From the NCBI GenBank assembly GCA_018060885.1, contig JAGOVF010000001.1:2481-66480 (forward strand): DNA of 64,000 bases. Direction: 5' to 3'. Below are positions 2,044 to 41,645 of this stretch, one piece after another. Source of the stretch: Oligoflexales bacterium. Its GTDB lineage: Bacteria > Bdellovibrionota_B > Oligoflexia > Oligoflexales > JAGOVF01. Numbering within the stretch: the first letter of the stretch is position 1; each line of letters starts with the position of its first letter. The notes beneath the pieces are model-generated. The model was not told the DNA's origin. It worked only from the letters and a program-made list of their open reading frames with translations, and did no database searches. The position numbers and the translations under genes are program-made.

Positions 2044-2911
2044 GCTCTCGCCTCCGCAGATAACGCACTAAGACTGGAACTGCCGGCTCATTGGTATTCA
2101 CTGTAAATTGATTGACGTTATATCTTCGAAGCATTTCTTTGGTATATTTTTTGGTCAGCATGATTTGTTCGTTATGTTTTTTTTGGAATTCTCGTGAAGA
2201 CGTATCGACCAAAACATACTCGCCGCTTTCAAGGTCTTTTAGTTGCACGACGCCAATTTTCGGAACTTGTTGTTCGTTTGGATCTTCTATAGAAATACAA
2301 GTCAAGTCATAACGCCGCGCCGCCAGCATGATACTTTTTTCATAGGAATCCGCCATAAAGTCGGACAAGAGAAAACAAGTCGCTTTTCTTTTTTGGACCT
2401 TTAATAAAAAACTTAAAGCCGCATTTATATCTGTTCTACCGGCGGCAGAATCGCGACTCAAAATCTGCCTAATAATATTCCAAACGTGGGCACGGCCTTT
2501 TTTTGGTGGTATGTAATGCTCGACCTTATCGCTGAACAAAAGAATTCCGACTTTATCGTTGTTCCTAATCGCCAAATAAGCCAGCAAAGCCGCAAGTTCT
2601 GCAGCAATAGAAATCTTTTGCCGCTTTCGTGAAGTAAAATGCAAAGATCCGCTGACATCTACCAACAACATAATCGTCAATTCGCGTTCTTCGCGGAAAA
2701 CTTTCACAAAAGGCTTTTGCATTTTTGCTGTCACGTTCCAATCGATCGCTCTCACATCGTCGCCCGGAACATATTCGCGAACTTCTTCAAACTCCATACC
2801 AATGCCGCGAAACGCGCTGGCATACTCACCCGACAATGCAGAATTAGCCAAATAACCGGCTTTTATTTGCACTTCTTTAATCTGACGAATGAGCTCGGCG
2901 TCGAGTATCAA
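2033..2911 (-). CDS. DUF58 domain protein (MoxR partner)
   Basis: Motifs VREYVPGDDVRAIDWNVTAK and LLVDVSGS. It overlaps the moxR stop by 4 nt, as in operons. Confidence 0.85.
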   Translation of the reverse strand: MILDAELIRQIKEVQIKAGYLANSALSGEYASAFRGIGMEFEEVREYVPGDDVRAIDWNVTAKMQKPFVKVFREERELTIMLLVDVSGSLHFTSRKRQKISIAAELAALLAYLAIRNNDKVGILLFSDKVEHYIPPKKGRAHVWNIIRQILSRDSAAGRTDINAALSFLLKVQKRKATCFLLSDFMADSYEKSIMLAARRYDLTCISIEDPNEQQVPKIGVVQLKDLESGEYVLVDTSSREFQKKHNEQIMLTKKYTKEMLRRYNVNQFTVNTNEPAVPVLVRYLRRRELAG

Positions 2912-3906
2912 GGTACGTCCACTCCTTCAAGCAGCCTTGTCACTATATGATCCGTGCTAATATTATCTGCTTCTGCCTCAAAGGTTGGAGTGATGCGGTG
3001 GCGCAGTACATCGAGTGCGACGCTTTTAACATCTTGAGGAGTGACAAAACTACGGCCCTCAAACAAGGCATTTGCCCTTGCGGCTTTTTCGAGAAAGATC
3101 GATGCCCGCGGGCTCGCGCCAATTTCAATGAGTTTTTCGAGTTCCTTCAAACGTGCTCGCGGTTCTCGAGTCGCGAAAACCAAATCGACAATATAAGTAC
3201 GCACTTTATCGGCGACGTGGATTGATAATAATGCTTGCTGCATTTCTAATAGTATATTCGCATCAATAACGGCATTGATACTTACTTGCGATTTTTGCAT
3301 AGCGCGCCGCATAATTTCAACCTCATCGACCGCCGAGCCATAACTCACTTTGACTTTAAATAAAAATCGGTCTACCTGCGCCTCAGGTAAAGGGTAGGTG
3401 CCTTCTTGCTCGATGGGGTTTTGCGTGGCTAATACCATAAACGGCTTATCAAGAATAAAGGTCTGGTCACCTAAAGTGACTTGTTGTTCTTGCATACATT
3501 CGAGTAGAGCTGACTGAACTTTTGCGGGGGCGCGATTGATTTCATCAGCTAATAAAAGATTGGTAAAAACTGGGCCTTTTTTGACTTTGAAATCGCCACT
3601 TTTGGGCTCATAAATCTGAGTTCCCAACACATCTGCTGGTAACAAATCTGGAGTAAATTGTATGCGCTTAAAAGCAAGATGGCAGGTCTGAGCTAGGGCG
3701 TTTATTGTTGTCGTTTTTGCCAAGCCTGGCAAACCTTCTAATAATACATGCCCGCCACAAATTAAAGCCATCAATAAACGATCGCTTACAGCGTCTTGAC
3801 CGACTATTTTCTTTTTAATTTCCTGGCGCACTTGTTGAATCTTTTCGCCAAAACGCAGCAATGTCTTTTCAAACTCAGGACTAACAGTGTCTACAATCTG
3901 ATTCAT
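2908..3906 (-). CDS. MoxR-family AAA+ ATPase
   Basis: Walker A GLPGLAKT, Walker B LLADEINRA, and VLATQNPIEQEGTYPLPEAQVDRF. RBS AGAGGA lies upstream of the ATG. Confidence 0.9.
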   Translation of the reverse strand: MNQIVDTVSPEFEKTLLRFGEKIQQVRQEIKKKIVGQDAVSDRLLMALICGGHVLLEGLPGLAKTTTINALAQTCHLAFKRIQFTPDLLPADVLGTQIYEPKSGDFKVKKGPVFTNLLLADEINRAPAKVQSALLECMQEQQVTLGDQTFILDKPFMVLATQNPIEQEGTYPLPEAQVDRFLFKVKVSYGSAVDEVEIMRRAMQKSQVSINAVIDANILLEMQQALLSIHVADKVRTYIVDLVFATREPRARLKELEKLIEIGASPRASIFLEKAARANALFEGRSFVTPQDVKSVALDVLRHRITPTFEAEADNISTDHIVTRLLEGVDVP

Positions 3907-3997
3907 GAAAATCCTCTAAGCAAAATGAGCTCAAATACAAAATTTAAGCTTATTTTAGACAAACTCAGAGGAAAGACAAGTATCCAGTTGCATGAGA

Positions 3998-5076: not shown

Positions 5077-5117
5077 CCGAGCCTAGCCACGCTTTCTAAA
5101 GTAACTCTCAGAGAAGC
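5077..5117 (+). repeat. Motif D, copy 1 (41 nt; 36/41 identical to 23284-23324)
   Basis: ccgagcctagccacgctttctaaagtaactctcagagaagc versus ccaagcctcgccatgctttctaaagtaactctcagaaaaac. Each copy is followed by a small hairpin. Confidence 0.7.
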
Positions 5118-5283: not shown

Positions 5284-5429
5284 CTTATGTAATAAGACCT
5301 GACTTGTCTTAGCCGCCAGAGGAACTGGTGAGGGCAGGACGCCCGAACCGGTAGCGATAATTTTGCCATGGATGGCATAAAAATTGAGCGGTCCTCTGGC
5401 GGCTAAGACAAGTCAGGCTTATTACATAA
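5284..5429 (+). repeat. Family A structured repeat, copy A1 (84-nt conserved core 5316-5399 on a 30-bp copy-specific stem)
   Basis: The core is CCAGAGGAACTGGTGAGGGCAGGACGCCCGAACCGGTAGCGATAATTTTGCCATGGATGGCATAAAAATTGAGCGGTCCTCTGG. Arm 5285-5315 pairs with 5400-5429, with one bulged A at 5297. The element lies 56 nt downstream of the stop of the minus-strand gene 5485..6873. Confidence 0.85.
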
Positions 5430-5484: not shown

Positions 5485-6873
5485 TTAGCTAAAAATCGTC
5501 TCTTCGAGGCCAAAATCATCGAAGCCTTCAAGATTATTTTTATTTCCCGCAGATTGGGATTGAGAGTCTTCAGAAAAATCATCTTCAAAAGGTGATGGTA
5601 TAGTTTGGCCACTCGGTGTTCCGGCAATACGTTCTTCTACACCTTCAATCGTGTAAGTCATATCGCCTTGTTTTTTGCGTGAGTCATCCGAAACGATCGT
5701 ATAACCACTTCGTTTGATAATGCGATCCATCTGATCTAAATTGGCTTGCGCCACACTATAGTCTGGATCGCTGCGACAGGCACTTTCAAAACAAATCTTT
5801 GCATTCTGCGGATCTTTTTGTCGGCGATAACCGACACCCATATTAAAAAAGAGCTTAGCTTGGGTGCGTGGGCTTTTATCGCCAACAGCGTTGATGGCAG
5901 CATCATAAAGTTTCATACCGGCATCGAAATTTCCACGTCGAATTAGCATCACTGCGGAAGAATTAAACATCGCCGCAAGCTCGACTGGAGAAACTGAACC
6001 TTGCACGATTTCTAAGGCTTCGTTAATCTCGCCATCCATCAGCCGAACTTTACCTTTGCCTTGTAAAGCCTCTTTGTTATTAGAGTCTAGAGCCAATGCA
6101 TTATCAAAAGCTTCAGCGGCCTTTTCATTTTTGCCTACATTGAGCAAAACTTCCCCAAGGCCAACGAGCTTTTCTGGATCAAATGGATTAAGCAAAGTGA
6201 TTTTTGAGTAAATTGCCTCAGCTTCCTTATAAATACCAACTTTCATGAGAGATCTAGCATAAATGTGCAGATATTTAATATTTGGCGGATTCATTTCTGG
6301 AAGCGGCGTTAAGATTTTTAAAGCTTCTTTTGCCAAACCATCTTGGAAATAGGACTCTGCAAGCTCAGCTCTTAAATAAAGGCTGTCTGGATTTTTATCA
6401 CAGAGATCTGTCAAGATGCGTTTCATCCCGGTAAAATCTTGCGCAATCCGTGCTCGCTGCACCCGTGTCAAATCATCCTTAAAAGCAGACCGCGCAGTGC
6501 CTCGACGAATGGTGTGACCTAAATTTGAAGCCAGTTCTTTTGCTTCATAAGCACCAATATGTATTTGTGTTACACCAAATTCCAGCGCAACAGAAATTAA
6601 ACTATCACTCATTTGTAAACTTGCTAATAAAATGGGTCGAGATGCTAAGCCACCTAAAAATACACATTTTTTCAGAATGCGAACACAAGCCGCCTCGTCA
6701 CCGTTCCAATCCAAAACAAAAAGACCGGTAGGAAAACGTTCAACACTATAAAGGGCATCATTAACAGAGCTTTGCTCGACAATGTTACTAATGGCTTTAA
6801 GCTGCAGCTGATTGCGCACAACTTCAGCAAACTGCTTGTCGCTACTAAAAATTATTGCGTCTACTACTGCCAT
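5485..6873 (-). CDS. TPR-repeat protein with an N-terminal CheY-like (possibly pseudo-) receiver domain
   Basis: The N-terminal ~120 aa look receiver-like (..GLFVLDWNGDE..) but lack the usual N-terminal acidic pair. The middle has multiple TPR-like AxxxYxxAL repeats. The tail is acidic. Confidence 0.65.
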   Translation of the reverse strand: MAVVDAIIFSSDKQFAEVVRNQLQLKAISNIVEQSSVNDALYSVERFPTGLFVLDWNGDEAACVRILKKCVFLGGLASRPILLASLQMSDSLISVALEFGVTQIHIGAYEAKELASNLGHTIRRGTARSAFKDDLTRVQRARIAQDFTGMKRILTDLCDKNPDSLYLRAELAESYFQDGLAKEALKILTPLPEMNPPNIKYLHIYARSLMKVGIYKEAEAIYSKITLLNPFDPEKLVGLGEVLLNVGKNEKAAEAFDNALALDSNNKEALQGKGKVRLMDGEINEALEIVQGSVSPVELAAMFNSSAVMLIRRGNFDAGMKLYDAAINAVGDKSPRTQAKLFFNMGVGYRRQKDPQNAKICFESACRSDPDYSVAQANLDQMDRIIKRSGYTIVSDDSRKKQGDMTYTIEGVEERIAGTPSGQTIPSPFEDDFSEDSQSQSAGNKNNLEGFDDFGLEETIFS

Positions 6874-23126: not shown

Positions 23127-23151
23127 TGCACACTTTTTTGAGCGACTTTCA

Positions 23152-23308
23152 TTTAGAAAGCATTTCGAGGCTTGGATGAACGAGCTGCCAGAGGACCGCT
23201 CAATTTTTATGCCATCCATGGCAAAATTATCGCTACCGGTTCGGGCATCCCGCCCTCACCAGTTCCTCTGGCAGCTCGTTCATCCAAGCCTCGCCATGCT
23301 TTCTAAAG
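23152..23308 (-). repeat. Family A structured repeat, copy A2 (core 23188-23271, inverted relative to A1/A3; 36-bp stem)
   Basis: The reverse complement of 23188-23271 is identical to the A3 core. Arm 23152-23187 pairs with 23272-23307, apart from a 2x2 mismatch at 23164-23165. The element starts 26 nt after the stop of the plus-strand gene 22344..23126. Confidence 0.85.
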
Positions 23309-23324
23309 TAACTCTCAGAAAAAC
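23284..23324 (+). repeat. Motif D, copy 2 (its first 24 nt form part of the right arm of A2)
   Basis: See 5077-5117. Homology to locus 1 extends leftwards through the whole A2 right arm (compare 5066-5101). Confidence 0.7.
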
Positions 23325-23493
23325 AGGCAGCACGCTGTTCCAAGCACATAATTAGCACAAAATCCTGCAACCTTGCAGATCATTTGGCATAGAAGTCTGC
23401 AGTTCGGCAAGATCTGCAGGTGTGAGTATGTTGAAAAACAAATGCCTTATTTGTGTATTGATCTGCGTATGCACCCTAAGCTGACAATCACTT

Positions 23494-23645
23494 GAGTCTA
23501 TAGCAAAGGCCTTGTATTGGCCGCCAGCCAGAGGAACTGGTGAGGGCGGGATGCCCGAACCGGTAGCGATAATTTTGCCATGGATGGCATAAAAATTGAG
23601 CGGTCCTCTGGCTGGCGGCCAATACAAGGCCTCTGCTATAGACTC
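23494..23645 (+). repeat. Family A structured repeat, copy A3 (core 23528-23611; 34-bp stem)
   Basis: The core is identical to rc(A2) and 82/84 identical to A1. Arm 23494-23527 pairs with 23612-23645, with one mismatch at 23506. The element lies 52 nt downstream of the stop of the minus-strand cyclase gene. Confidence 0.85.
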
Positions 23646-23696
23646 TATGAAATTCGTTTAAATGTGTGCATCACCAAGTTAAAAATACGCAAAAAA

Positions 23697-26920: not shown

Positions 26921-27026
26921 TGCGTCGTCATTCTGAACCCTGAGCCTAGCGAAGGGGAAGAATCTATTTTTTTCAGCCGAAAATATTGTTTCATTAGATC
27001 TTTCGCTTCGCTCAAGATGACGCGCA
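26921..27026. repeat. Family C hairpin repeat (GTCATTCTGA..GAGC..AGCGAAG..AAGAATC / inverted partner)
   Basis: The left arm 26921-26964 and right arm 26997-27026 are imperfect inverted repeats. The reverse complement of the right arm is tgcgcgtcatcttgagcgaagcgaaagatc. The element begins 17 nt after the stop at 26902-26904. Confidence 0.7.
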
Positions 27027-27129: not shown

Positions 27130-28392
27130 ATGCAAAACACCGGTTTAAAAAACTTACTCTATATTTTGAAACGCACTAGCAAGTCTTTAGCGTTGATGAT
27201 TTTTCTATTTTTACAAATTTCACCTTCTCTTAGCGCAGAAGAATTACCAGAATTTTTTACTCCTGTTGGCCCCATGGGTATGGGCGGAGCTTTCACTGCG
27301 GTAGCTAATGACGAAAATAGTGTATGGACAAATCCCGCGGGAATCTCTCGTGTACGTAAAGCCCGCGCTCGCAGCAAGCTTCATTTAGCAAAGTTCCCCA
27401 ATCTCATTGCAGGAGCCAACTCGGCTAGCCGCAGTTTTTATTCTGGTGTTCAAAGTTCGCAAAGCACAAGCTCAAGCACAGTTCTTGCCAACTCAGAAGA
27501 ACTCGATACCAAACCCTTTTGGGCGCGTGTTGCCATAGCTCCTATGGCATTTTTCGAACTTGGAAAAAACAATCCAGCCGCTTTTGGAATTTTTATGAAT
27601 ACACAAGCAAGTGCCGTCATCACTGCGGAAGATCCAGAAAGAGCCCAGGTAAAAAGCACCTCTGATCTTGGCGCTATTTTTGGCTGGAGCTTCTCGAACC
27701 AAAGTAATCGTTTTAGTGCTGGATTTAATGTTCGGCCGGTTCATCGTTATGCTTTCGAAGACAATATCGCGACATCGCTATTAACAGACCACACTGAGAT
27801 GACCAAGCTCATGCAAGATGGTTCGAATACCTCCACTGGCCTTGGTGTCGATTTAGGCATGATCTACACGCTTGCAGATTATTGGTTTCCGACTTTTGGA
27901 GTATCATTACTTAATGCACCACTTGCTTGTAAAGATAACTACCTCAATCCCTTCAGCGAAAAACGCGAGACTGTCTGCGGCACTGTCTATTCAGGTTCAT
28001 TTGCCAACGAAGATGCCTTGTCTACAATCGATCCTACTGATATTCGTGCCGGTCTCTCTATCACACCTAGACTTTCGCGAACAATGGCTCTGCGCATTGC
28101 CATCGACATGCATCATATCCACTTTGCATCAGGGACTAGCAACTACGGTTTAAGCGGAGTCGATGCCGGAAAAACTTTGCATGCTGGTTTGGAATTGCTT
28201 TTTGGCAATCCGCTTTTACCAAGTCCATTTAGTTTAAAATTTGGTGCGAATCAGGGTTTTATCACCACCGGAATGACACTAAGAATGCCGTACTTTAGCT
28301 TCGAACTTGTTTCTTACGGTACGGATCTGTCCAGCCAAGCTAAAACGAAAGAAGACCGCCGGATAGTGAGCTCCCTTTCCTTCGATTTCTAA
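27130..28392 (+). CDS. Outer-membrane beta-barrel protein (TraF_2/UPF0164-like)
   Basis: Signal peptide ending ..PSLSA. N-terminal GMGGAFTAVANDENSVWTNPAGIS motif. Alternating beta-strand pattern and a C-terminal aromatic residue (..LSFDF). Confidence 0.65.
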   Translation: MQNTGLKNLLYILKRTSKSLALMIFLFLQISPSLSAEELPEFFTPVGPMGMGGAFTAVANDENSVWTNPAGISRVRKARARSKLHLAKFPNLIAGANSASRSFYSGVQSSQSTSSSTVLANSEELDTKPFWARVAIAPMAFFELGKNNPAAFGIFMNTQASAVITAEDPERAQVKSTSDLGAIFGWSFSNQSNRFSAGFNVRPVHRYAFEDNIATSLLTDHTEMTKLMQDGSNTSTGLGVDLGMIYTLADYWFPTFGVSLLNAPLACKDNYLNPFSEKRETVCGTVYSGSFANEDALSTIDPTDIRAGLSITPRLSRTMALRIAIDMHHIHFASGTSNYGLSGVDAGKTLHAGLELLFGNPLLPSPFSLKFGANQGFITTGMTLRMPYFSFELVSYGTDLSSQAKTKEDRRIVSSLSFDF

Positions 28393-28517
28393 GGGATTGT
28401 CGTAAATCGACGATAACGGCGTTAGGACTCATTCGAAAATCCTCATGTACTTATGAAGTACACTGCGGTTTTCTCATTTCATCCTGCCTTGTTCTCCTCG
28501 ATTTTCAACAATCCCTT
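28391..28517 (+). repeat. Family B structured repeat, copy B1 (79-nt core 28419-28497 between a copy-specific outer stem)
   Basis: The core gcgttaggactcattcgaaaatcctcatgtacttatgaagtacactgcggttttctcatttcatcctgccttgttctcc is about 66/79 identical to 39824-39902. The outer stem aagggattgt (28391-28400) pairs with acaatccctt (28508-28517). The left arm overlaps the stop codon at 28390-28392. Confidence 0.8.
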
Positions 28518-28625
28518 TACTCTGTTCTAATGGATTTGTGCAATAATGGGACTGTTGAAAATTAGTGTCAACTAAGCTAGTTTTCAACGGTCTCTTTATT
28601 ATTTTTCTTGCTGGAGCATTTTGAC

Positions 28626-29705
28626 ATGCGTTTCTCAAAAGTTTGCTATTCTCGCGCCCGCTCACTAGTTCTCCTAAATAGTGCTGCGTTTTTTGTATTA
28701 CATTGCACAAGTACCCAAACAAATCTGCAAAATCAGCCCGCAGATCATTTAAAGTTGGAAAAAAAAGATAAAACTGCTGCAACACCTCTTCAAAAGTCGC
28801 AAGAATCGGCTGTTTTAAGCAAAGGCAAGGCACAAGATCTTTATAGCCGACTTTCTAATTCCATAACAGCCTTAAGCCCAGCAGATCGTGAGATTCGTAA
28901 TAGCTTGAGCTCGCAAAATAATCGCAACACCCTAGACAATGCTGTGCTCTATTTGCTAAACGTGCATTCGATACTGCATCCACTAGGAGGCACTAGCGTC
29001 GTCAATGAAAGCCCACTGGATGACAGTAGCACTCCAATAGCCAGTGCGGGATCTGGCGCTATTAGCTTTGAAGATTTTAGTCAGGATGAAAATTTTGATT
29101 TTGTAAGCAACTTTCGCGACAATCCTTATTTACAGGATAAAGAAAGTATCGCTAAGCTCACTTTAGATGCCGCAGAGCGAGGGCCGAAAGATTCTATAAT
29201 CAGCCAACAATTGCGTGATCTGATTTCTCAACGCGCGGCGAACTGGCTATCTCTGACACAAAAATATCAGCTCGGGCAAAACCAGGCACCAAACGGCGAA
29301 ACACCTCCTGAAGCAGAAGCGAGCACGACACCGAAAGCTCCTCTTGCCATGGGCGATTTACGCGATTCAGATGAAGTCCTCGATATAGCTCAACAGCTCG
29401 CGAATCAGGGGAAACTTAAAGAAGCTAATACCGAGCTCTCAACAATTGGCGAAGATTCACCTCTCTACGAAACTGCCCAGGAAAAAGTAATACAGTACAG
29501 CAACCAAGGCGCTGCGGAACTGCGTCAACAAGCTGCGCAAGCCTTTCAAAGCGCCATGGCGAATTTTAATATGACTTCTAGAAAAGATTATCTTGAACGC
29601 GCAAAGAAACTCTTGCAACAAGCTCTGACTGACTTTCCCCGCACAGAAGATAAAGAGACAATCGAAGCGAATTTGGTGGTTATCGAGAGAGAGCTGAATA
29701 AGTAA
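28626..29705 (+). CDS. Secreted or membrane-anchored hypothetical protein
   Basis: ATG 28626 gives MRFSKVCYSRARSLVLLNSAAFFVLHC... (signal/anchor). The rest is Q/A/S-rich with a helical C-terminus. The track start 28608 is also possible. Confidence 0.6.
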   Translation: MRFSKVCYSRARSLVLLNSAAFFVLHCTSTQTNLQNQPADHLKLEKKDKTAATPLQKSQESAVLSKGKAQDLYSRLSNSITALSPADREIRNSLSSQNNRNTLDNAVLYLLNVHSILHPLGGTSVVNESPLDDSSTPIASAGSGAISFEDFSQDENFDFVSNFRDNPYLQDKESIAKLTLDAAERGPKDSIISQQLRDLISQRAANWLSLTQKYQLGQNQAPNGETPPEAEASTTPKAPLAMGDLRDSDEVLDIAQQLANQGKLKEANTELSTIGEDSPLYETAQEKVIQYSNQGAAELRQQAAQAFQSAMANFNMTSRKDYLERAKKLLQQALTDFPRTEDKETIEANLVVIERELNK

Positions 29706-39453: not shown

Positions 39454-39759
39454 ATGACTTGCGTACGAAAATGCCCACATTACATTCGGCATGGCTACCT
39501 CGCACAAGATGGCAAAACGATTCAGTTCAAAGACATGTGCGGGCTCAGCATGCGAAAAACTGAAATCCCACGTCCGAAAGTTGCGGAGCAAGAATGCTCC
39601 CATCATCCCTTTGTCAAAGGATTTGAATATTCAAGTTGTGCGACTTATTTAGCGGTCTTTAAGACTGGCGACCAACGCAATAATGCGAGTCCAACTAGCG
39701 ATTTTCAATTTTCTGATGCGTTAGCGGGTGGGTCATTGGCAGACATGGAACTCTTTTAA
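39454..39759 (+). CDS. Small Cys/His-containing hypothetical protein (101 aa)
   Basis: Strong RBS (AAGGAGG 7 nt before the ATG), and a hairpin follows the stop. No family recognised. Confidence 0.55.
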   Translation: MTCVRKCPHYIRHGYLAQDGKTIQFKDMCGLSMRKTEIPRPKVAEQECSHHPFVKGFEYSSCATYLAVFKTGDQRNNASPTSDFQFSDALAGGSLADMELF

Positions 39760-39796: not shown

Positions 39797-39921
39797 GAGG
39801 CTGCAGGGGAATTAACGATTACTGCGTTAGACCTAACTCGAAAATCCTCATGTACCCAAAAGGTACACTGCGGTTTTCTCATTACGGTCTGCCTTGTTCT
39901 CCTTAATTCTTCTGCAGCCTC
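39797..39921 (+). repeat. Family B structured repeat, copy B2 (core 39824-39902; 19-bp copy-specific outer stem)
   Basis: The outer stem gaggctgcaggggaattaa (39797-39815) pairs with ttaattcttctgcagcctc (39903-39921). Two of these pairs are G:T only on the plus strand. See B1 for the core. Confidence 0.8.
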
Positions 39922-39930
39922 TAATGTTTT

Positions 39931-39980
39931 GTCATTCTGAGCGCACCCCGTGTCATCCTGAGCCACAGGCGAAGGATCTC
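39931..39980 (+). repeat. Family C repeat fragments (GTCATTCTGAGCGCA + GTCATCCTGAGCCACAGGCGAAGGATCTC)
   Basis: This is the same word family as 26921-27026, but here only same-orientation halves are present. It is followed by a third occurrence of CGAAAATCCTC (39983-39993). Confidence 0.6.
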
Positions 39981-40073
39981 AACGAAAATCCTCTTGGGTT
40001 CAGTCCTATACCAATTTAATATTTACAACTCCCGATCTTGGTTGCGTTGAAGAAAATGGCTGGTTCTTTCTGT

Positions 40074-41645
40074 TTAGAGTTGGCCAGGTGCTGGTGAGTT
40101 CTTGTAACGACTTCGAGCGCGCACCAGGATGTTGAACCGACAGGAACAAACTTTTCCATCGGGTGCTAAGCAAGGACTGGTGAACTCTGCATCGAAAGGA
40201 GCTTTTGCGATGAGAGTTGGTTTATATTGATTGGGGCCCGACATCGGTATTTTGAACAAGGCATTGCGTTTAAATTCTGCATAAGGGCCTTTGCCCAACA
40301 TCTTTTCAGTCACATCCGTGGTCAGCCATAAATCACCGTGAGAATCAAACATTAAATTGTCTGGGCAATAAAAGCCAGACTGCTGTCCCCCAGCAATAAA
40401 TGGTTCGGCATTGAAATGCCTTCCCGAATAATCTTCTTGTTCGCTTATACGAAGCACATAGCCGTTGTAATTGCCACGTGAAACACTGTTTGTGAGGGCC
40501 ACATAGACTGCGCCGCTCTTAGGGTCAATCTTAATGTCTTCGGGGCGTTCCATCGCAGTGCCGCCAATCAGGCGAGCTGCGGCATGACAATTAATTAACA
40601 CGTCCAATTGAGATTTGAAGTTCTTCTTTAGATCGGCATTTTTATCTATATCAAGAGCAAGCCATTCACCGCGGTCTATACTTGCTACATAAAGCGTTCC
40701 GTTATCTAGAGATGTAGCAGTATCTGAGACAAATTTATAAATACAACCGCCATCGCGATCATTTCCACTATAGGCCACAGCTCTTTTATCTTTGCTAATT
40801 ATTATCGTGGCACCTTCATGACGAAAACGGCCAAGTGGAATTAATTTTTTTGCCGAGCCATTAAAAGGATTGATTTCCGTCAACCAGCCGTAATGTTCGG
40901 GCGGTCTTTTGTCGAGAGTTTCCCAGCCAAAGCTCGATGACGAAAAGTCTCGCTTTCCTGTTTGCATATTCAAGACTTGATCACCAAAAAAATCTTGGTA
41001 ATTTTCTTCTCCAGAAATAAAGGTTCCCCAAGGAGTCTTACCGCCAGAGCAATTAGCGAGAGTGCCCTTTGCAAAACTCGATCCAGCTATCTGTTGTTGC
41101 CCACTAAATTCTATAATTGTATTTGCATCTAGACGACGATTGTAAGGATCATTTTCGATAAATTGCCAAAATCCATTTTCTCTCTTTTCTACCGCGATGA
41201 TACTCACTCCGACCGCATGCATCTCCTTTTTCAGATGTTCTGGCGAGACAGGCTCATTTTCGGAACGTCCACTCACATACAAGGGATGAAATTCTTCGTG
41301 ATTTATTCCGAGTAAGGCAAATCTCAGCGAGTCCTTGTTGGGGTAAGGAAAACAGGTGATCAAATCATTGCAATCACCAAAAACATCCTTTTTGTGGCTT
41401 AGAACATCGCCGTAGTTGATGAGTAATTTAGCTTCATACCCAGGAGCTAGACTGAGTTCATCAGAATCTTGCTCTAAGGTATTCGAAAATTTGCTTTGAA
41501 TGTTTTTTGACTTTTTATTAGTAGCTTTGTGGTCTGCAGCAAAGGCACTAGGAAATTGCAATAACAAAGGCAAAGACGCGCCTAACTCAAAGGATTTGAT
41601 AAGTGCCGATCTTCGTTTAATTTGATTTTTTCCCGATAATTTCAC
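40074..41645 (-). CDS. phoX: PhoX-type (DUF839) Tat-secreted alkaline phosphatase; 3' end frameshifted
   Basis: Twin-arginine signal (KRRSALIK...AFA). Family motifs GGKTPWGTFISGEENY, GRFRHEGA, ERPEDIKIDP and PDNLMFD. GTG start with RBS GGAGG. The conserved C-terminus continues in the -1 frame to 40006 (see finding). Confidence 0.85.
   Translation of the reverse strand: MKLSGKNQIKRRSALIKSFELGASLPLLLQFPSAFAADHKATNKKSKNIQSKFSNTLEQDSDELSLAPGYEAKLLINYGDVLSHKKDVFGDCNDLITCFPYPNKDSLRFALLGINHEEFHPLYVSGRSENEPVSPEHLKKEMHAVGVSIIAVEKRENGFWQFIENDPYNRRLDANTIIEFSGQQQIAGSSFAKGTLANCSGGKTPWGTFISGEENYQDFFGDQVLNMQTGKRDFSSSSFGWETLDKRPPEHYGWLTEINPFNGSAKKLIPLGRFRHEGATIIISKDKRAVAYSGNDRDGGCIYKFVSDTATSLDNGTLYVASIDRGEWLALDIDKNADLKKNFKSQLDVLINCHAAARLIGGTAMERPEDIKIDPKSGAVYVALTNSVSRGNYNGYVLRISEQEDYSGRHFNAEPFIAGGQQSGFYCPDNLMFDSHGDLWLTTDVTEKMLGKGPYAEFKRNALFKIPMSGPNQYKPTLIAKAPFDAEFTSPCLAPDGKVCSCRFNILVRARSRYKNSPAPGQL

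Follow-up and report, generated by a model that had tools for sequence, protein, structure and literature searches.

A probable miniature inverted-repeat transposable element with a conserved, folded centre in an Oligoflexales genome and in other bacterial phyla

Several families of bacterial repeats, such as ERIC/IRU, RUP, BOX, Nezha, Chunjie and REP/REPIN, consist of short intergenic hairpins without coding capacity that exist in multiple copies and are often co-transcribed (PMC10969869, PMC3184786). Particularly relevant here are the Correia elements (CREE or NEMIS) of Neisseria, non-coding units of about 70-157 bp with inverted-repeat ends, a directional conserved core, a target duplication and no known transposase, which are present in more than 100 dispersed, mostly intergenic copies and are co-transcribed (PMC2649163); the hairpins of transcribed copies are cleaved or bound by ribonuclease III (RNase III) (PMC2649163; PMC10969869). 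Here we describe a hairpin element, named B, that occurs twice (B1 and B2) in a stretch of 64,000 nucleotides from an Oligoflexales bacterium (assembly GCA_018060885.1, contig JAGOVF010000001.1, positions 2,481 to 66,480 of the forward strand; hereafter the window). B1 and B2 are probably diverged copies of a non-autonomous transposable element of about 125 bp, a MITE (miniature inverted-repeat transposable element), that have inserted into intergenic DNA. The B family shares the above-mentioned traits with ERIC/IRU, RUP, BOX, Nezha, Chunjie and REP/REPIN, co-transcription being plausible in its case, but while each of those is restricted to a genus or family and most conserved at its termini, the B family is most conserved at its centre and spans at least nine phyla. 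It is an element of a known kind, a MITE, but an uncatalogued one, unusual for the conservation of its centre across phyla and for a possible tie to the Correia elements.

The two copies are located about 11 kb apart amid housekeeping genes and form imperfect hairpins of 125-127 nt (Table 1). An earlier note on this DNA, made from the sequence alone, had delimited two cores of 79 nt (28419-28497 and 39824-39902) with 66/79 identical positions, and this two-copy family is real; the direct repeat extends over 99 nt (28405-28503 and 39810-39908, 80/99 identical). As the note had also observed, the apical stem covaries (GTACTT/AAGTAC in B1, GTACC/GGTAC in B2) and the changes in the basal helices are paired; in fact, most differences between B1 and B2 fall at paired positions. 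When the only other copy of the window type, found in the metagenome contig L122 (L122:363-490), is included, 11 of the 46 predicted pairs have changed on both sides with the pairing kept. The outer stems of B2 and of the L122 copy comprise 18-19 bp, and folding of the plus strand, compared with dinucleotide shuffles, gives z = -7.5 for B1 and -10.2 for B2. A 17-mer common to both copies has four matches in the window at up to 3 mismatches, two of which are the exact B1 and B2 sites, a result equalled in 0 of 100 shuffles. A covariance model of the family scores 62.7 and 59.8 bits at these sites and, because its next-best score in the window is just 13.6, only two B copies are present in the 64 kb; likewise, nhmmer and the covariance model returned no further copies in the window or in other Oligoflexales loci. 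No open reading frame (ORF) was found inside the hairpins, whether in the window copies (125-127 bp) or in the family (median length 163 bp), and a tRNA/tmRNA scan found none. Comparison with all 4227 Rfam families gave no match at B1 even at E values up to 10, none for the element in the window at the gathering threshold and no match in 18 diverse loci, the sole Rfam match in the window being the TwoAYGGAY motif.

Sites with and without the element show that B is inserted DNA. The flanks of the L122 copy match window positions 23148-23207 and 23210-23236, two segments with a gap of just 2 nt between them in the window, and the copy itself is nested in the first AYGGAY hairpin of a TwoAYGGAY element (L122:300-520, equivalent to window 23148-23236) that is uninterrupted in the window. 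Since these flanks match the uninterrupted TwoAYGGAY copy, the inserted unit is the whole hairpin including its outer stem. For B1, the upstream fadL-like gene and the next gene are separated by 234 nt in the window and by 63-90 nt, with no element, in four Oligoflexales loci that share the gene order CHASE2-cyclase, small ORF, fadL-like gene and next gene; the fadL-like orthologues of these loci end in the same SFDF-stop as the window gene. At B2, independent Logan contigs of the same genome or sample (L123, L124) stop in or beside the element, as expected at a repeat, which suggests that further B copies are present elsewhere in this genome.

Traces of transposition are also found in the relatives of B1 and B2 (the census that identified them is described below). 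In Desulfobacterota and in the metagenome-assembled genome (MAG) CAYXKT01 the core is embedded in a unit of 160-190 bp that is bounded by the inverted repeats ACCTAAATTGAGCGAT / ATCGCTCAACTTAGGT and flanked by 3-nt direct repeats (e.g., ATG, TTC, GTC, TCT and ATT); such flanking repeats accompany 13 of 110 copies, compared with 1-2 in offset controls. MAG CAYXKT01 contains at least about 24 near-identical copies, and many of its contigs end in the repeat. In other subfamilies (Burkholderiales, Clostridia, Bdellovibrionales and the plasmid copies) the ends read TA-GGG..CTGCAC, and TA is present on both flanks in 18/74 copies compared with 1-7/74 in controls. B1 has the ends TA-AGGGATTGT..ACAATCCCTT-TA and, judged by sequence, the outer stems of B1 (TA-AGGGATTGT), of the L122 copy (TA-AGGGGCTGC) and of B2 (GAGGCTGCAG) look like diverged versions of the TA-GGG..CTGCAC termini. 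Of the properties by which MITEs are recognized, the element has the following: it is short and non-coding, carries terminal inverted repeats, is dispersed in unrelated contexts, and has filled and empty sites. Two further observations concern the termini. Units bounded by ACCTAAATTGAGCGAT in Desulfobacterota also occur with other central modules or with none (L063:2827-2925, L094:~6470-6551, L115:6463 and L089:2250); this unit behaves like a chassis with exchangeable centres, and the conserved core may itself have been captured. In a subfamily of groundwater 'Deltaproteobacteria' (3' ends in L030, L037, L085, L097 and L109) the right terminus is tandemly duplicated (..GCGTTCGTATGA..N12..ATGCGTTTGTATTA).

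The census of the family was made with the pattern GAAAATCCTC-N10-28-CTGCGGTTTTC, scanned over one genome per GTDB species. The pattern is present at no fewer than 119 loci, while about 5 would be expected by chance according to our rough estimate. The genome-wide search with the core that the earlier note had suggested thus uncovered a dispersed, multi-copy insertion element in many phyla, which is in spirit the hit to a known repeat that the note had named as refuting its own reading. Among the matches listed, the central 21 nt are identical over at least nine phyla (Pseudomonadota, Thermodesulfobacteriota, Bacteroidota, Bacillota, Synergistota, Acidobacteriota, Gemmatimonadota, Nitrospirota and Bdellovibrionota), with termini that are lineage-specific. 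Carriers among these matches include Comamonadaceae and other Burkholderiales, Rhizobium, Martelella, an Enterobacterales MAG and many Desulfobacterota, as well as Bacteroidales (including Alistipes and Rikenellaceae), Lewinella, Clostridia, Synergistota, Acidobacteriota, Gemmatimonadota, Nitrospiraceae and Bdellovibrionales; isolates are found only among the proteobacterial carriers and the other phyla are represented by MAGs, which for the Bacteroidales are many, independent and with long contigs. The covariance model confirmed 105 sites in 100 loci and rejected the lone chance match within an ORF. The core pattern has 0 matches in 2.9 million viral contigs and 0 in 5,426 E. coli genomes, and is rare on plasmids (5 records, in which the matches are unannotated). 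Two plasmid copies, L129:2940-3105 of Diaphorobacter and L130:2926-3103 of a Cupriavidus IncP plasmid, are located about 100 nt upstream of transposase genes of the IS66 and IS481 families; we take these as adjacent insertions and not as parts of those insertion sequences. Clustering of the 1013 ORFs located within 3 kb of 126 matches revealed no recurrent protein family. Literature searches with the core words retrieved only coincidences with primers, and those on MITE and "conserved core" topics nothing matching; in Rfam and in the literature, searched by sequence words and by topics, we met no description of a MITE family that combines a central 21 nt identical over nine phyla with lineage-variable termini. 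In Rhizobium sp. FY34 a copy is located about 20 nt after a flavin mononucleotide (FMN) riboswitch aptamer, on the opposite strand (L049:236-397 and 418-481), and all Rhizobium and Martelella copies have longer conserved flanks in common, including a terminator-like GCCCGGCCC hairpin.

All copies are built on the plan ..YTGCGTT..(helix of about 10 bp, not always present)..GAAAATCCTC-variable hairpin-CTGCGGTTTTC..(helix)..GCCTTG.., around which lie longer inverted repeats that differ by lineage. The consensus of 44 diverse copies folds into a helix GAAAA/UUUUC followed by a bulged U, CC/GG, a U·C mismatch, a C-G pair, an R·U pair and then the apical stem. Among 93 distinct sequences, 195 cells of the apical stem have changed on both sides, compared with 58 ± 6 in shuffled and at most 60 in slid controls, figures that lean towards the model since the underlying alignment was fitted to it. 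Copies found independently of the exact pattern (L038:845, L038:2491, L057:1383 and the plasmid copy in L130) carry compensatory changes in the otherwise invariant helix (G-C to A-U, C-G to G-C and A-U to C-G). Because the apical stem covaries and the helix changes in a compensatory manner, the hairpin is under selection, or subject to arm-to-arm correction, as a folded nucleic acid. Readings of the element as containing small ORFs, an IHF consensus, or SECIS, SRP-like or K-turn structures were dropped, as the corresponding features are not conserved between copies. In all, B1, B2 and their relatives have arisen by insertion of an inverted-repeat element that encodes nothing and whose centre is constrained in structure.

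The MITE reading would involve mobilisation in trans by a transposase encoded elsewhere, probably through staggered cuts of 2-3 bp, with the central module (the covarying apical stem on its conserved irregular helix) retained as a recognition site for the mobilising machinery or for a host factor. Several observations weigh against it. Conservation peaks at the centre of the element and not at its termini, an arrangement that is unusual in MITEs and hints that the centre does more than bind a transposase. The fetched loci and plasmids revealed no autonomous element whose ends match; looking for such a partner through solo inverted repeats in the loci led to nothing but MITEs that are deletions or variants and a 757-aa ORF that is unrelated. 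In the window, the TA..TA flanks of B1 are only suggestive of a target duplication and none is demonstrable at B2, and the element-free loci compared with B1 belong to distant relatives (58% protein identity), in which the exact junctions are unreadable. Finally, the twofold orientation bias with respect to upstream genes, described below, is unexpected for a purely neutral DNA parasite.

A structure-specific site in single-stranded DNA, resembling attC or REP sequences and acted upon by a tyrosine recombinase or an HUH enzyme instead of a DDE-type transposase, would account for the long imperfect hairpin with its conserved bulge and mismatch, for the better folding of one strand in most copies, for the frequent location directly after ORFs, and for the fact that the outer stems of otherwise near-identical copies differ in some subfamilies. 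However, the direct 3-nt target duplications and the TA flanks point to transposition by staggered cuts, and neither cassette arrays nor an integrase or RAYT gene recurring nearby were found. The attC boxes RYYYAAC / GTTRRRY are not conserved either, GTTAGAC being present only in B2 and with no partner box. Moreover, REPs are conserved at their ends while the B element is conserved at its centre, and no RAYT or other recurrent neighbour gene assigns the family to REP/REPIN. We therefore consider this explanation extremely improbable.

Whether one strand of the element acts as RNA was approached through its folding and its orientation. The earlier note had held that the pairings are valid only on the plus strand, which is contradicted by the minus strands folding at -55.4 and -60.3 kcal/mol (B1 and B2), against -43.1 and -56.4 kcal/mol for the plus strands. 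Across the family, the whole hairpin is more stable in the minus orientation in 82 of 101 copies. Counts of wobble pairs in the arms favour the same orientation (358 versus 161), with one subfamily dominating and others, B2 included, reversed. Read on the plus strand, the polymorphic purine beside the apical stem pairs with U in one register; read on the minus strand, it is a Y that pairs with G in a different register. Assignment of a strand by folding energy, by wobble versus A·C counts or by the R23 position was consequently given up, as the results are contradictory or register-dependent. Intrinsic terminators, and insertion into terminator loops, were also considered and rejected for want of U-tract or A-tract enrichment: no U-tract follows the hairpins in either orientation (a mean of 2.9 T per 10 nt downstream, equal to the mirror control), and six or more T are found downstream of 11 copies compared with 7 in the mirror control.

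In 51 copies, the end of a co-oriented gene lies upstream of the core at a distance of no more than about 130 nt, and the mirror arrangement is found in 24; when the Desulfobacterota subfamily is excluded the counts are 44 and 18, this high-copy subfamily being itself unbiased (7 versus 6). The counts derive from crude gene calls and from copies that are not independent, and we see in them a hint of moderate strength that 3' untranslated regions (UTRs) tolerate or favour the plus orientation. They also make co-transcription of copies located in 3'UTRs plausible. Read-through from the neighbouring gene would place the element in the mRNA as a long imperfect hairpin which, by analogy with Correia elements, RNase III may cleave or bind and which may change the stability of the mRNA incidentally, not as a designed regulator. 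The same bias argues for a domesticated cis-acting RNA module that would spread as a MITE, with a core kept for the benefit of the host in 3'UTRs, for instance as a barrier to 3' exonucleases, an entry site for RNase III or a protein platform. Such a module would fit with the conservation of the core across phyla, with its asymmetric bulge and its mismatch, beside stems that covary, and with the position of B1 between a stop codon and a separate terminator-like hairpin. Against it, B2 is situated between convergent genes, so that neither of its strands is the only sense strand, the high-copy subfamily is unbiased, wobble pairs do not assign a strand, and the bias could stem from insertion preference or from co-orientation of genes and replication. 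Domestication of this type is therefore improbable.

The interpretation of the earlier note was a family of plus-strand, 3'UTR-derived, trans-acting small RNAs (sRNAs) with a CU-rich tail acting as an anti-Shine-Dalgarno (anti-SD)-like seed. 3'UTR-derived sRNAs such as CpxQ and SroC sit directly downstream of a stop codon, and in this respect the B copies are alike: B1 is located at the stop of the fadL-like gene and B2 38 nt after that of a 101-aa ORF, both on the plus strand. This positional claim holds, but B2 is equally 152 nt downstream of the stop of phoX on the minus strand. The pyrimidine tract CTGCCTTGTTCTCC is, as proposed, invariant in B1, B2 and the L122 copy on the plus strand; it is not a free seed, as in all three copies it is paired with GATAACGG or GATTACTG, nor is it a family-wide feature, because only GCCTTG is conserved across the family and TTCTCC is specific to the subfamily. 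Unlike CpxQ or SroC, B has no terminator or 3' end of its own: no U-tract closes the putative sRNA, and the terminator-like hairpin downstream of B1 (28545-28597) is a separate structure. Nor does the word GAAAATCCTC at 3907-3916, which the note had pointed out, with reserve, as antisense to the ribosome-binding site and start of moxR, relate to the element, since it is the reverse complement of GAGGA-N5-ATG, the ordinary ribosome-binding site and start codon of the ORF at 2908-3906 (-). A mobile repeat present in many phyla next to unrelated genes is also difficult to reconcile with this model, which we regard as very improbable. The observation behind it was nevertheless right, though over-interpreted, and the reading is partly supported; what survives, weakly, is the approximately twofold excess of the plus orientation just downstream of co-oriented genes.

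With the element regarded as a MITE, its closest counterpart, also by a close analogy of function, is CREE, which is likewise small, non-coding, dispersed and intergenic, with inverted-repeat ends and a central core. CREE differs in lacking the GAAAA/UUUUC helix of the B family and in its presence in Neisseria prophage contigs, from which the copies used for comparison were taken, whereas the B core is absent from the viral contigs scanned. B relatives without the spacer helix align collinearly with a 105-bp CREE through GACAAGGCGA, CCGCAG, an apical GTAC-type hairpin, AGG and AACGCnGTA. The best four of these alignments (L040, L011, L041 and L066) score 18-22, compared with a shuffle mean of about 9, and are reached by 0-1 of 3000 dinucleotide shuffles; those of L096 and L017 score 14-14.5, values reached by 6 and 12 of 3000 shuffles, respectively. 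Overall, 10/56 representatives exceed z = 3 against CREE in one orientation and 1/56 in the other. However, B1 and B2 do not align significantly with CREE (scores of 11 and 10.5), and the link was not recovered with the covariance model R1, with an nhmmer profile of 18 spacer-less copies or with a blastn search of CREE against 0.93 Mb of loci. Similarly, the directional core of CREE (with a TCAGGACAA end and a CCGGTACGG end) has collinear blocks in type I relatives only in targeted pairwise tests, and B1 and B2 are without them; the 26-bp Correia inverted repeat TATAGTGGATTAA(C/A)AAAAA.. is absent from B1 and B2, and some relatives share no more of it than an initial TATAGTC... On sequence grounds, homology between the B family and CREE is possible, with a chance that we would put at or slightly below even, and the alignments do not establish membership. 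A broader proposal, that both belong to a pan-bacterial superfamily of hairpin MITEs in which a widely distributed mobilising enzyme or host factor would recognize the central module, either as RNA or in the form of folded single-stranded DNA, is rather doubtful.

Within the same genome, the closest parallel to B is the TwoAYGGAY motif (RF01731), which corresponds to the family A of the earlier note; the likeness in architecture that the note pointed out holds. Both have a conserved centre, variable complementary stems and several dispersed copies, but TwoAYGGAY contains two AYGGAY loops instead of one apical hairpin and has no sequence or model similarity to B. That the two are separate elements follows from the B-type copy that is inserted in a TwoAYGGAY copy in L122. 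The TwoAYGGAY copies also display conserved outer termini (TTTAGAAAGCAT .. ATGCTTTCTAAA) outside their variable complementary stems, and an inverted pair with a spacer of about 500 bp appears to be duplicated at about 4.9-5.4 kb and 23.1-23.6 kb, to which the stretches 5077-5115 and 23284-23322 also relate; TwoAYGGAY looks like a mobile repeat as well. Another element, the beta-proteobacterial repeat element (BRE), has been described in Bordetella and Comamonadaceae (PMC3110155); it shares the Comamonadaceae lineages with the B family and is a candidate relative that might even be the same element.

The coordinates of the elements and their surroundings are compiled in Table 1. A simple terminator scan did not call the hairpin downstream of B1. 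This hairpin contains, at 28543-28571 on the minus strand and pointing into B1, a match to the sigma-70 consensus (TTGACA-17-CATTAT, 10/12 positions), for which the consensus match is the only basis. The motif GTCATYCTGAGC..GAAGGATCTC is present four times in the window (39931-39980 and 26927-27021), a count reached by 0 of 100 shuffles, and again in a related Oligoflexales locus (L125:1690-1712); the copy beside B2 is followed by another GAAAATCCTC at 39984. GC skew is markedly negative over the 64 kb, with 22.3% C and 18.7% G on the plus strand.

Table 1. Coordinates of the B copies, the TwoAYGGAY copies and adjacent features in the window.
Feature	Position	Strand	Remarks
B1, hairpin element copy	28391..28517	.	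Outer inverted repeat AAGGGATTGT / ACAATCCCTT; TA at 28390-28391 and 28518-28519
B1 conserved core	28435..28473	+	GAAAATCCTC, apical hairpin, CTGCGGTTTTC
B1 "CU-rich tail"	28484..28497	+	CTGCCTTGTTCTCC; 3' strand of the hairpin, base-paired
B2, second hairpin copy	39797..39921	.	Outer inverted repeat GAGGCTGCAG / CTGCAGCCTC
B2 conserved core	39840..39878	+	Counterpart of the B1 core
B2 "CU-rich tail"	39889..39902	+	Base-paired likewise
FadL-like outer-membrane protein gene, 420 aa	27130..28392	+	Native stop TAA 28390-28392 abuts B1
Terminator-like hairpin (28545-28597) and T-rich run	28545..28611	+	Between B1 and next gene (ATG at 28627)
Hypothetical ORF, 101 aa, upstream of B2	39454..39759	+	Convergent with phoX; called by a gene caller
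phoX	40074..41645	-	Stop 152 nt from B2, opposite strand
TwoAYGGAY copy	5286-5428	+	Rfam, 43.3 bits
TwoAYGGAY copy	23160-23298	-	Rfam, 39 bits
TwoAYGGAY copy	23491-23648	+	Rfam, 42.2 bits
Uninterrupted site within TwoAYGGAY copy	23198..23222	.	Equivalent position in L122 holds a window-type B element

For the window, B1 and B2 are to be annotated as copies of a repeat or mobile element and not as sRNA genes, which removes a false lead, and the compensatory changes between them are no proof of a trans-acting RNA. Elements of this kind break assemblies, as seen here in the Logan contigs, and when located in 3'UTRs can alter the fate of mRNAs. If the link to the Correia elements is real, comparisons within the B family would provide a way to learn how a classic element is mobilised. 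Should the broader superfamily proposal hold, what moves Correia elements, a question that dates from 1988, could be addressed by matching the phyletic profile of the core to those of protein families over thousands of genomes.

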